In this document: one piece after another, positions 20,856 through 24,396 of the stretch
How positions within the stretch are numbered: position 1 is the first letter of the stretch
Layout of the letters: every line of letters begins with the position of its first letter
Origin: an uncultured Candidatus Saccharibacteria bacterium
Lineage (GTDB): Bacteria > Patescibacteriota > Minisyncoccia > Phycocordibacterales > Phycocordibacteraceae
DNA: 30,142 nt
Assembly: GCA_964426785.1 (NCBI GenBank)
Contig: CAYRRU010000001.1
Coordinates: 1-30,142 of the forward strand
Direction: 5' to 3'
Translations under genes and position numbers: made by a program
Notes under the pieces: generated by a model
Databases searched by the model: none
What the model was told of the DNA's origin: nothing
Seen by the model: the letters and a program-made list of their open reading frames with translations, nothing else

Positions 20856-22319
20856 ATGTCGAACCTCGACTCTATACGCGCTGAACGCCTGAAGAAACTA
20901 AACCTGCTTAAGGAGGCGGGTATTGACCCATACCCCGTACGAAGCCGTAGGACACATACGGCCGTTGATTTCGCACAGAACCACAAACTTCTGGAGGAGG
21001 GGAGTGAAGCGGTGACGGTTGCAGGACGTGTTACCTCAATTCGTGAGCACGGAGGATCACTCTTTGCAGATCTCTTTGACGGTACGGGAAAGACACAGGT
21101 GTATCTACAGAAGGATACACTCGGAGACGAAGCGTATGCGCTATTCACTGAAACGGTGGACCTTGGAGACATTGTTGAAGTCTCAGGACCTGCGATGACT
21201 ACAAAGCGAGGTATGCCATCTGTTTCCGTTGGAGAATGGCGCATGCTCGCAAAGTCACTCCTTCCCATGCCCGACGAATGGTACGGACTTAAGGATGAAG
21301 ATGAGAAATACCGAAAACGATATCTTGATATTCTTCTTGATCGTACTGTCGCTGAGCGCATCACACGCAGGTCAAAATTCTGGAACACGATTCGCACCTA
21401 CCTACTTGCCCGCGGCTTTATTGAAGTGGAGACACCAGTGCTAGAAACAACAACGGGTGGGGCAGAGGCACGTCCATTTGTTACGCACCACAATGCGCTT
21501 GATATTGATGTATATCTGCGCATAAGTGCAGGAGAGCTTTGGCAGAAGCGACTCATGGTTGCCGGACTTCCAAAGGTATTTGAGATTGGTCGTATCTTCC
21601 GCAATGAGGGTATGTCGTTTGAACACTTGCAGGACTACACACAACTTGAGTACTACGAAGCGTTTAGTGATTACGAAGCGGGTATGGAAATGGTAACCGA
21701 CCTGTATCGCACTATTGCTGACGAAGTGTATGGCTCACGCGTGTTTACCATCAAAGACTTCACCGTTGACCTCGGTGCTGAGTGGGTTCGTTATGACTAT
21801 TGCGCACTCATAAAGGAACACTTTGGTATTGACCCTCTACAAACTAGTGCAGAGGAGATTATGAGTGTACTTGAGAACAAGAACATCTCATTTGATAAGA
21901 AAGGTTTCAATATTGAACGAGGCGTTGATCTCTTGTGGAAGCAAATTCGTAAGTCTATTGGGGGTCCTGGATTCCTTATTGGTGTGCCTGCGTATCTTGA
22001 GCCACTCGCCAAGCGCAGTCCTGAGGACGACCGTGTTGTGGAGCGATTCCAAGTACTCCTTGGAGGATCTGAAAACGGAAAGGGCTTTAGTGAGCTGAAT
22101 GATCCAATTGATCAAGCAGGACGCTTTGGACACCAACAGTCTCTTCGCGATCAGGGTGACGACGAGGCGCAGATGAATGATGCAACGTATGTTGAAGCAC
22201 TGGAGCATGGAATGCCTCCTGCTTTTGGATTCGGTGTGTCTGAGAGACTCTTTAGTTTCTTGGAAGGTGTGTCTGTACGCGAAGGTCAGATCTTCCCCTT
22301 GATGCGTCCAAAGGAATAG
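20856..22319 (+). CDS. lysS: Class II lysyl-tRNA synthetase
   Basis: OB-fold (VAGRVTSIREHG), GGAEARPFVTHHNALD, GRIFRNEG, FSELNDP, LEHGMPP. Confidence 0.95.
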   Translation: MSNLDSIRAERLKKLNLLKEAGIDPYPVRSRRTHTAVDFAQNHKLLEEGSEAVTVAGRVTSIREHGGSLFADLFDGTGKTQVYLQKDTLGDEAYALFTETVDLGDIVEVSGPAMTTKRGMPSVSVGEWRMLAKSLLPMPDEWYGLKDEDEKYRKRYLDILLDRTVAERITRRSKFWNTIRTYLLARGFIEVETPVLETTTGGAEARPFVTHHNALDIDVYLRISAGELWQKRLMVAGLPKVFEIGRIFRNEGMSFEHLQDYTQLEYYEAFSDYEAGMEMVTDLYRTIADEVYGSRVFTIKDFTVDLGAEWVRYDYCALIKEHFGIDPLQTSAEEIMSVLENKNISFDKKGFNIERGVDLLWKQIRKSIGGPGFLIGVPAYLEPLAKRSPEDDRVVERFQVLLGGSENGKGFSELNDPIDQAGRFGHQQSLRDQGDDEAQMNDATYVEALEHGMPPAFGFGVSERLFSFLEGVSVREGQIFPLMRPKE

Positions 22320-22321
22320 CA

Positions 22322-22345
22322 AAAGGCGCTCTGGGGAGCGCCTTT
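22322..22345. terminator. Bidirectional intrinsic terminator
   Basis: AAAGGCGCTC-TGGG-GAGCGCCTTT between convergent lysS and the orphan gene. Confidence 0.8.
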
Positions 22346-22354
22346 CACCAATCG

Positions 22355-22639
22355 TTACATTGTCGCGTACTGCGCCTCCAAAGCGGAGAGGACTTGATTC
22401 GCGGTGACGTCGTTTCCGGCGATCATCACGAACCCTCCACGCTTTGGTTTGACCGGCTCCTTCAACGAGGTGTTCGTTACGATTGCGAAGATTTCAGTCT
22501 TCGTAGTCTTCGGAACGTCGCCGATGTCGACGATTTTCGCGGTCGCCTCGCCACTGCTCTTAAGTCTCCTCAAGACTTCCATGGCTGGTCTATCCGTCTC
22601 GTACGCCACGAACATCCTACGTTCTGGGACGTTGCCCAT
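22355..22639 (-). CDS. Hypothetical 94-aa soluble alpha/beta protein
   Basis: AGGGAG SD 7 nt before ATG; alternating strand/helix pattern; preceded by a promoter and structured leader. Confidence 0.75.
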   Translation of the reverse strand: MGNVPERRMFVAYETDRPAMEVLRRLKSSGEATAKIVDIGDVPKTTKTEIFAIVTNTSLKEPVKPKRGGFVMIAGNDVTANQVLSALEAQYATM

Positions 22640-22695
22640 TACTATTCTCCCTGATTTGATTGGTGTTTTTGGTGCCCGCTTGGGCGAAAGGACTC

Positions 22696-22734
22696 ATAAA
22701 ACGAGAATCGGACCCTCTCTCGGGGGTCCGATTC
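22696..22734 (-). terminator. Leader (attenuator) terminator upstream of the 94-aa gene
   Basis: GAATCGGACCC-C-C-GAGA-G-A-GGGTCCGATTC: 11-bp stem, GNRA loop, then TCGTTTTAT on the minus strand. Confidence 0.7.
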
Positions 22735-22760
22735 AAATCTCCTGCACTACCGTCTAATTT

Positions 22761-22853
22761 CTAGTTGGAAATTTGAATCGAAACCCGAGCCATCGTAATG
22801 AGGCCGAGGTGACAAAAGACGGTAGTGATGAATTGAGAGATTGCTCGTTCCAT
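22761..22853 (-). CDS. Putative 30-aa leader peptide MERAISQFITTVFCHLGLITMARVSIQISN
   Basis: ATG 8 nt after the -10 box; spans the P1 5' arm and the antiterminator 5' arm; TAG at 22763-22761. Could be a chance ORF. Confidence 0.35.
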   Translation of the reverse strand: MERAISQFITTVFCHLGLITMARVSIQISN

Positions 22854-22861
22854 GTCCCTGC

Positions 22862-22890
22862 ACAATACCTTTTTTAGCGACTTTCGTCAA
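22862..22890 (-). promoter_or_regulatory. Sigma70 promoter driving the structured leader
   Basis: TTGACG-17 nt-TATTGT. Confidence 0.75.
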
Positions 22891-22917
22891 AGTGATGGGG
22901 ATAACATCGTTATGATG

Positions 22918-22963
22918 GTGGGATGAAGTGTCATATACTTACTTATTAGTGGGAGAAAGTGGG
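22918..22963 (+). promoter_or_regulatory. mraZ promoter with MraZ-type GTGGG repeats
   Basis: GTGGG at 22918, 22949 and 22959 plus GTGTC at 22928 (about 10-bp phasing) around the -10 box TATACT at 22934-22939. Confidence 0.7.
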
Positions 22964-23001
22964 AGAGACAGAAATCTCCATCACTTCCGCAATACCAATC
23001 C

Positions 23002-23436
23002 ATGTTCATCGGAGAATACCGTCACACTTTTGATACCAAGAATCGCATTTCGCTACCGGCGAAGTTTCGTCGTGAGCTCGGTGCGACGGTGGTGGTAACG
23101 CGCGGACTTGATAAGTGTCTTTTTGTATATCCAAAGAGTGCGTGGAAGAAAGAAGCAGAAAAGATTTCAAAATACTCAACCGGAAGTGCAGCAGGACGCG
23201 GACTCTCACGTCTCATGCTTGCAGGAGCTGTTGAGGCTGATGTTGATAGCGCTGGTCGCATCTTGGTCCCTGACTACTTGCGCAGTTTCGCCACCCTTAC
23301 GGACAAAGGCGTCATAGCTGGTGTGTCTGATCGTGTGGAGATCTGGGACGAGAAGTCCTGGGAGCGATACACCGAGACTATTGAGCGTGATGCGGACGCA
23401 TTCGCCGAAACACTCGGTAGTGGAGGAGCTCTATAA
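23002..23436 (+). CDS. mraZ: Division/cell-wall cluster repressor MraZ
   Basis: MFIGEYRHTFDTKNRISLPAKFR, DSAGRILVP, GVSDRVEIWD. Confidence 0.96.
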   Translation: MFIGEYRHTFDTKNRISLPAKFRRELGATVVVTRGLDKCLFVYPKSAWKKEAEKISKYSTGSAAGRGLSRLMLAGAVEADVDSAGRILVPDYLRSFATLTDKGVIAGVSDRVEIWDEKSWERYTETIERDADAFAETLGSGGAL

Positions 23437-23442
23437 AATACT

Positions 23443-24396
23443 ATGGAAACCAAACACGAATCAGTCCTATTCAATGAGTCCATAGAAGCGCTTGAGATCA
23501 AGTCTGATGACGTTGTCGTTGATGCAACGCTTGGTGGGGCAGGGCACTTTGGCGCGATACTGAAACTCCTTGGAAGCGAGGGGACATTGGTTGGTATTGA
23601 TGCGGATCAAGACGCTGTTGAGCGTGCGCAGGCTGTGGTAACTGCTGACACTAGGAGCGAGAAACCAACCGTGCACGTGGTTGAAGGGAATTTCCGTAAC
23701 CTAGAAGGCATTCTGGAAGACAAGGACCTTAAACACGCCGACAAGGTGCTCTTTGACCTTGGCTGGAGTAGCTTCCAGCTAACCCGTGGTCGCGGGTTCT
23801 CCTTTCGTACTGACGAGCCCCTTCTCATGACCTACGGCAACCCCAAGGAGTCTCAGACGGCAGCAGACATCGTGAACTCATCATCCGAAGAAGCACTTTC
23901 AGAAATAATCTTCACGTTTGGTGAAGAGCGCTTTGCTCGCGGTATCGCGAAAGCCATTGTGCGTGAGCGCAAAAAGGAAAAAATTCTCACGACTGCTCAA
24001 TTGGCTGCTGCTGTTGAAGCAGGCACTCCGTCTTGGTACCACCACCGCCGTCTACATCCCGCAACCAAAACATTCCAGGCTCTCCGTATTGCGGTGAATG
24101 ATGAACTTGGTGCACTCCGCGACGGACTTGCTGCTGCGCTTAAAGTGGTGCCGGCTGGAGGACGTATCGCGGTCATCACTTTCCATAGCATTGAGGATCG
24201 GATTGTGAAGAGTGTGTTCCGAGACGCAGCGTATGACGGGAAGGGAAGTCTTGGAAACCGCAAACCCATAGTGCCAAGTGATGCCGAGCTTGAGGTAAAT
24301 CCACGAGCGCGCAGCGCAAAGCTACGAGTGTTTGTGCGCGGTGAAGGCGAGCAAACAAAGCGTTCTATTTTTCATAACAACATAGCCTATGTCTGA
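23443..24396 (+). CDS. rsmH: 16S rRNA m4C1402 methyltransferase
   Basis: HESVL, DATLGGAGH, FDLGWSS, HPATKTFQALRIAVNDEL, FHSIEDRIVK, NPRARSAKLR. Confidence 0.96.
   Translation: METKHESVLFNESIEALEIKSDDVVVDATLGGAGHFGAILKLLGSEGTLVGIDADQDAVERAQAVVTADTRSEKPTVHVVEGNFRNLEGILEDKDLKHADKVLFDLGWSSFQLTRGRGFSFRTDEPLLMTYGNPKESQTAADIVNSSSEEALSEIIFTFGEERFARGIAKAIVRERKKEKILTTAQLAAAVEAGTPSWYHHRRLHPATKTFQALRIAVNDELGALRDGLAAALKVVPAGGRIAVITFHSIEDRIVKSVFRDAAYDGKGSLGNRKPIVPSDAELEVNPRARSAKLRVFVRGEGEQTKRSIFHNNIAYV

Follow-up and report, generated by a model that had tools for sequence, protein, structure and literature searches.

The element that precedes a 94-aa gene on the minus strand of the window (the whole stretch of DNA that was analysed, 30,142 nt) is probably a ribosome-mediated, that is leader-peptide, transcription attenuator, for which both the translation of a short ORF and termination at a hairpin are predicted. 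It represents a known kind of regulator, of which it forms a new family restricted to one clade; the copy present here is a rewired variant. The initial annotation had described a promoter, the helices P1, P2 and P3, a terminator-like hairpin and an alternative helix, and all of them were found again at the stated positions of the minus strand. Their positions are given here together with the leader ORF, the pairing regions and the downstream gene.

22862-22890, minus strand: promoter, with -35 TTGACG at 22890-22885, a 17-nt spacer and -10 TATTGT at 22867-22862
22761-22853, minus strand: leader ORF of 30 codons plus stop, from ATG 22853 to TAG 22761, encoding the peptide MERAISQFITTVFCHLGLITMARVSIQISN
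22827-22817 with 22755-22745, minus strand: P1, 11 perfect pairs (CACTACCGTCT with AGACGGTAGTG), enclosing P2 and P3
22809-22802 with 22791-22784, minus strand: P2 hairpin (CCTCGGCC with GGCTCGGG), sequestering the 5' end of region 2 and kept in relatives
22773-22768 with 22761-22756, minus strand: P3 (AATTTC with GAAATT)
22767-22791, minus strand: region 2, leader codons 21-29, the 5' strand of the antiterminator, which also supplies P2 with its 3' strand and P3 with its 5' strand
22782-22769 with 22740-22727, minus strand: alternative helix (TTCGATTCAAATTT with AGATTTGAATCGGA), 14 pairs of which two are G-U
22719-22742, minus strand: region 3, the shared strand, pairing with region 2 (antiterminator) or region 4 (terminator)
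22705-22734, minus strand: terminator-like hairpin with 11 bp, the relatives having 16-17 bp
22696-22704, minus strand: U-rich tail TCGTTTTAT, 3' of the terminator-like hairpin
22355-22652, minus strand: putatively regulated gene, with SD AGGGAG at 22652-22647 and ATG at 22639, 94 aa

BLASTN of the element against 60 relatives gave marginal matches only, and the 94-aa protein was missed by a direct search of 200 genomes from its family; for this reason 30 genomes of the genus were sampled for the DNA upstream of mraZ. In at least 10 of these 30, nhmmer located the element 150-330 nt upstream of mraZ, on the strand opposite to it. With a covariance model trained on 12 copies, full-length copies, nearly always one per genome, were recovered in 41/151 genomes of the genus (Paceibacteria); 150 genomes of other genera of the order gave one weak match to the model (30 bits) and no other. 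Wherever the position of mraZ was compared, the copies adjoined mraZ and diverged from it, and the mraZ-anchored loci of named MAGs were arranged likewise. The genome of the window (0.54 Mb, 85% complete) has the gene order lysS (plus strand), 94-aa gene (minus), leader (minus) and then mraZ-rsmH-ftsL-like-ftsI-mur, diverging on the plus strand. This distribution, with covariation of both helices, bears out the initial annotation in its view of an unclassified but conserved switch of the attenuation type on the minus strand. Two genomes carried two tandem leader-plus-gene modules upstream of mraZ, the second module of locus L060 sitting ahead of a short acidic protein.

L060 (genome G134), 749-891 and 1501-1651: tandem modules
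L100, 433-583 and 1193-1345: tandem modules

Covariation was counted on the homologous leaders for each of the two helices. In the terminator, both sides had changed in 12 of 17 pairs among 29 distinct sequences and in 13 of 17 among 42 distinct sequences, a count that leans towards this state since the covariance model was fitted to it. The antiterminator pairs lay outside the model; both sides had changed in 13/25 of them among the 29 distinct sequences and in 14/25 among the 42, where 87.7% of the cells were paired. On the model-based alignments 86-88% of the antiterminator cells were paired, versus 28-65% when the partner strand was slid, and a plain MAFFT alignment of 12 copies gave 91% paired cells, with 10/24 pairs changed on both sides, versus 29-66% in the same control. 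All of these counts come from related sequences, and neither the counts nor the shuffle controls are to be read as probabilities. Since both helices covary and share region 3, the competition of antiterminator and terminator that had been proposed is the conserved core of the element. The antiterminator holds two to three conserved mismatch positions, and in this genome the alternative helix continues across an internal loop into CTCGGG/CCCGAG. G-U and U-G pairs are frequent (for example 31/42 and 29/42 at two antiterminator positions, and several in P2); on the opposite strand they would be A-C, which fixes the minus strand as that of the RNA, as first assigned. At least five T in eight were present in the U-rich tail of 20 of the 42 homologues and at least four in 36, the remaining tails, with three T or fewer (6 homologues), being weak. 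In relatives, codons 2-5 (ACUCAAGC) pair with UCGCUUGAG in a start-region helix (85% paired, 6/9 pairs changed on both sides), and P2 is paired in 85% of the cells across copies, with 4/9 pairs changed on both sides and many G-U; both of these helices can sequester region 2. The part of anti-antiterminator is thus played in relatives by the pairing of codons 2-5 with the TCGCTTGAG segment, together with P2.

Downstream of the terminator hairpin, a second small hairpin overlaps the U-tract in about 15/27 relatives (L040-L069, 0-45 nt after the terminator hairpin). On the 3' side of this hairpin and before the downstream SD, a TGATCTTTCA motif is conserved in relatives, where this genome has GAGTCCTTTCG (22682-22692, minus strand); UCUUUC could pair with a GGGAG-type SD. 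RNAalifold, run on the MAFFT alignment of the region after the ORF, recovered the terminator core alone, with neither the second hairpin nor the TGATCTTTCA motif resolved.

The sequences of regions 2 and 3 are conserved far beyond what base pairing alone needs. Such conservation would suit an attenuator worked by a trans-acting factor, in which an RNA-binding protein (possibly the downstream product or one linked to MraZ), a tRNA or an sRNA binds regions 2 and 3 and the ORF either delivers ribosomes or is incidental. The conserved motif and second hairpin after the terminator in many relatives, the basic C-terminal helices borne by the downstream proteins and the MraZ boxes adjoining the promoter also speak for it. 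However, coding together with two or three alternative pairings can account for the conservation of these regions, a model with a protein only leaves the conserved frame, start and stop position of the ORF unexplained, and no known RNA-binding domain was seen in the downstream family, so that we regard a trans-acting factor as quite unlikely.

At the gathering score, no Rfam 15 family was found in the window or in 12 homologous loci, in line with the initial annotation, which recognized no known class. The top match of a permissive search was L20_leader (15.9 bits versus a threshold of 58.7, E=3); this and a weak match to RNAI were dismissed as noise. The whole leader has an MFE of -77.6 kcal/mol and a z-score against shuffles of -5.74 for the minus strand, the plus strand scoring -3.97, and a helix as long as P1 arose in just 0-2 of 300 loop shuffles. 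The initial annotation leans towards the three-way junction closed by P1 as the sensor, which would make the element a metabolite riboswitch with the P1/P2/P3 junction as aptamer and a ligand that stabilises P1 and thereby leads to the terminator. A perfect 11-bp P1 is indeed improbable by chance and the fold is strongly non-random, no known Rfam class fits, which leaves room for a new one, and the whole element is 100% identical in the nearest relative, G257. Against this, a scan of all homologues for a P1-like helix showed that P1 and P3 are limited to this genome and G257, one other lineage having an unrelated 10-bp analogue; both are missing from about 40 other family members, and P1 was rejected as a family feature. 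There is thus no conserved ligand-binding junction. The junction and its loops vary in sequence and length and are coding sequence with a conserved frame, and the conserved nucleotides belong to the alternative helices, no conserved unpaired core being visible. In the metagenome contig X16, the 5' arm of P1 carries two changes, ATC to ATT and ACT to ACG, both synonymous, which weaken the helix and are uncompensated, the 3' arm being unchanged. Taken with its narrow distribution, these changes indicate that P1 is a recent lineage-specific anti-antiterminator and not a conserved aptamer stem. A riboswitch is in our view highly improbable and the junction was not upheld as sensor. Of the riboswitch or attenuator logic initially invoked, the attenuator part stands, in its leader-peptide form, and the riboswitch-like sensor does not, because the junction lacks conservation and lies in coding sequence.

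Several changes set apart the lineage of this genome and G257. The start-region helix was lost (region 2 reads UCGAUUCAA versus UCGCUUGAG in the family), two conserved antiterminator mismatches became pairs, the terminator was cut from 16-17 bp to 11 bp, and a 15-nt insert was gained that forms the 3' arm of P1. The P1-P2-P3 junction is the predicted stand-in, as anti-antiterminator, for the start-region helix of the relatives. Between the two genomes, positions 22677-22856 are identical at 180/180 nucleotides, with the flanking lysS and rsmH being 83-90% identical. This extreme conservation, the strong promoter, the stable structure and the terminator would also fit a terminated leader of about 160 nt that works as a small RNA in trans, alone or together with the peptide, attenuation being secondary. 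Attenuator-derived sRNAs and functional leader peptides are known, for example rnTrpL/peTrpL (PMC6614838, PMC7298713). Such a role leaves the covarying antiterminator unexplained, however, and is compatible with attenuation and not an alternative to it; as the primary function of the leader it is very unlikely.

The leader ORF, read on the minus strand, covers the 5' arm of P1, P2 and the 5' arm of P3. An in-frame ATG (GTG once) with conserved TCG-CTT-GAG codons was present in 41 of 42 distinct copies, and the frame is kept over ORF lengths of 26-34 codons, so that all indels preserve it. This frame was free of stops in 30/30 copies. Of the other two forward frames, one was open in 8/30 copies and one in 1/30, and on the reverse strand the three frames were open in 16, 5 and 3 of the 30. 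The peptides of the relatives follow the pattern M(T/N)QA...(hydrophobic)...GL(L/I)xPVGVSLEVSPK. In the variable middle of the ORF the second codon position is the most conserved, and Leu/Ile/Val make up 42% of the corresponding part of the peptide and LIVF 50%, with less than 1% D+E and no run of a single codon. Peptide conservation peaks where the RNA pairs, and selection on the peptide and on the RNA is therefore inseparable there. In 30/30 copies the stop codon follows region 2 by 3-18 nt and precedes region 3 by 2-18 nt and the terminator stem by 10-26 nt, a spacing that places it inside the antiterminator loop.

Upstream of the ORF, TTGACG-17-TATTGT is the sole sigma-70-like site in 22000-23500 according to a consensus promoter scan, and the pattern of TTGACA/G, 17-nt spacer and TAnnnT recurs in every copy. 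The start codon is found 8 nt past the -10 in this genome and 6-11 nt past it across the homologues, so near that the transcripts should be leaderless or nearly so. In the MFE structure of this genome, the 5' end with the AUG (GGGACAUGGAACGAG) is base-paired to the terminator tail (CUCGUUUUAUGAGUCC; 22695-22855, minus strand), so that a terminated leader would lock its own start codon; this pairing is absent from the relatives.

A conserved hydrophobic ORF with its own strong promoter and hairpin terminator could also be a stand-alone gene for a small protein, be it a membrane peptide or one akin to type I toxins, in which the pairings tune the translation or the mRNA stability of the gene itself and the downstream gene is reached by incidental read-through. 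The hydrophobic and branched-chain richness is of a general kind, and a membrane peptide would look alike. The pairing of the start-codon region, with downstream sequence in relatives and with the terminator tail here, recalls the start locking of type I toxin mRNAs. Yet hydropathy and charge-free length class just 9/30 peptides as TM-like, several having R/K/E/D in the core, and the consensus scan of 22000-23500, which cannot prove absence, showed no opposite-strand promoter for an antisense RNA. The element is moreover single-copy and fixed beside mraZ, neither mobile nor multi-copy. An SD-led gene follows on the same strand in every copy, 25-77 nt past the hairpin in nearly all, and for the 94-aa gene the same scan detected no promoter of its own; finally, a plain terminator needs no selected competing antiterminator. 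We consider a stand-alone small-protein gene unlikely.

For the preferred reading, a leader-peptide attenuator, the ribosome was modelled by masking -12 to +15 nt. In nascent transcripts ending before region 4 the antiterminator was the MFE structure in 26/29 copies without a ribosome; it persisted with a ribosome anywhere within the first 16-18 codons and was lost when the P site was about 4-12 codons before the last sense codon. In the full-length RNA the terminator state was more stable in most copies, and the equilibrium folds of most relatives had the terminator as MFE wherever the ribosome was placed. Given this insensitivity of the equilibrium fold in relatives, the decision would have to depend on kinetics, as it does in classical attenuators. 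In this genome, the equilibrium fold with the ribosome at codons 12-16 had 14/14 antiterminator pairs and 0/11 terminator pairs, and with the ribosome at codon 3, 20, 25 or 30 it had the terminator. The predicted energies were -33.4 kcal/mol for the extended antiterminator hairpin alone, -30.9 kcal/mol for the three-way junction and -21.3 kcal/mol for the terminator.

The attenuator would work as follows. A strong promoter of the sigma-70 type would start a leaderless message at the leader ATG or within a few bases of it. Region 2, the last third of the ORF, could pair with region 3 in a long antiterminator hairpin with the stop codon in its loop; alternatively, region 3 could pair with region 4 in a GC-rich hairpin followed by the U-rich tract, the putative terminator. 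Upstream ORF sequence would also sequester region 2, through codons 2-5 and P2 in relatives and through the P1-P2-P3 junction in this genome. A ribosome keeping pace with the polymerase would cover region 2, upon which the terminator would form and the downstream gene would be off. A ribosome lagging or stalling in the Leu/Ile/Val/Phe-rich middle (about codons 9-17) would permit the 2:3 pairing and hence read-through. From the sequence we infer that the leader ORF is translated and that termination occurs at about 22697. The signal could be the supply of charged branched-chain tRNA or the general pace of translation. Public runs labelled as RNA yielded short Logan contigs, which carry neither strand nor transcript ends; one of them spans the hairpin and another the promoter.

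The initial annotation had regarded the downstream gene as an orphan, which turned out not to be the case. Fifteen of 31 downstream genes form one BLASTP cluster of fast-evolving proteins of 120-180 aa with an SRFLRI-like motif, and an HMM of this family matches the 94-aa protein (E=9e-5, 31-sequence set) and several others. The 94-aa protein, for which Pfam gave no match, is thus a predicted divergent short member of the fast-evolving family that follows the element in most genomes; a few loci carry a short acidic protein in its place. The family had no sequence match in Pfam or the PDB. A confident AlphaFold model (pLDDT 91) has a generic fold with an alpha/beta core and two long helices, and Foldseek searches of the PDB, AFDB clusters and the ESM Atlas returned no convincing structural neighbour. 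Between this genome and G257 the downstream gene has 55-70% nucleotide identity versus 83-90% for the flanking housekeeping genes and 100% for the leader, a divergence that suggests diversifying or relaxed selection on the putatively regulated protein. The genome, which is 85% complete, showed neither IlvC nor LeuB-type genes, and biosynthetic feedback logic is accordingly not to be expected. Past the gene, a probable bidirectional terminator lies at 22317-22350 between the convergent lysS and 94-aa genes, in the form of a 15-bp hairpin flanked on either side by A/T-rich sequence.

Between the leader promoter and mraZ we also noted repeats that resemble MraZ boxes.

22918-22962, plus strand: MraZ-box-like repeats, GTGG 22918, GTGT 22928, GTGG 22949 and GTGG 22959, with 10-nt spacing within each pair

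These repeats fit the pattern of MraZ operators, whose boxes consist of GTG(G/T) and a 6-nt spacer (PMC12957436). Their distance upstream of the -35 of the divergently oriented leader promoter is 28-75 nt, and MraZ might therefore act on both promoters.

A broader reading, rather doubtful, is that the switch is not specific for an amino acid and gauges translation pace in general, or leaderless initiation, in an obligate symbiont unable to make amino acids. Lagging ribosomes would turn on a rapidly diversifying protein whose gene lies back-to-back with the MraZ operator of the division and cell-wall cluster, and the present lineage would have re-engineered the sensor (new P1/P3 junction, repaired mismatches, shortened terminator) with the output kept. 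If true, this would tie host-derived nutrient supply to the control of division. Should the element be a leader-peptide attenuator, as we prefer, it would mean that ultra-small cells couple transcription with translation, that they translate leaderless messages and that the pace of the ribosome is one of their regulatory inputs. A fast-evolving anonymous gene family beside the division cluster would also be marked as tightly regulated, and its function would become more accessible to experiment. The rewired variant offers a small natural experiment on the evolution of a switch in which both alternative folds stay. To our knowledge, almost no cis-regulatory RNAs have been described in Patescibacteria/CPR, and a limited literature search found no paper on attenuators in CPR.

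The attenuators of the enterobacterial leaders trpL, ilvL/ivbL, leuL, hisL and pheL have an SD and a 5' UTR, runs of codons for the sensed amino acid and a matching biosynthetic operon. The present element has the same 1:2, 2:3 and 3:4 topology, with a stop codon sited so that a terminating ribosome would mask region 2 and a stalled ribosome would favour the antiterminator. Unlike these leaders it is predicted to be leaderless and has no codon run, and none of the corresponding Rfam leader families matches it. The leader of bmrCD in B. subtilis (PMC4191407) and that of mef/mel (PMC4335068) respond to ribosome-targeting drugs and control transporter or resistance genes; the element resembles them in that its leader ORF would sense slowed translation generally and in its non-biosynthetic target, whereas nothing ties the downstream family here to drugs. 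With leader peptides of Deinococcus deserti, which are leaderless from a 5'-terminal AUG and predicted to act in attenuation (PMC4007540), it has the predicted leaderless start at a 5'-terminal AUG in common.

The closest known system is the ilvBNC attenuator of C. glutamicum. Its transcription starts 0-1 nt from the codon that starts the leader, which is thus leaderless, its leader peptide IlvL has 15 codons and is rich in Ile/Val/Leu, and it forms anti-antiterminator, antiterminator and terminator hairpins, the first of which also covers the translation start (PMC11857589). The leaderless start, predicted here, the leader rich in branched-chain residues and the logic of three hairpins, with the first one over the translation start, are in common with the element described here. 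There is no sequence similarity between the two, and the lineage here is Paceibacteria (CPR). The present leader is also twice as long (26-34 versus 15 codons), the antiterminator strand is formed by its own 3' third, it has no tight cluster of regulatory codons, and its putative target is a fast-evolving gene outside branched-chain amino acid biosynthesis.
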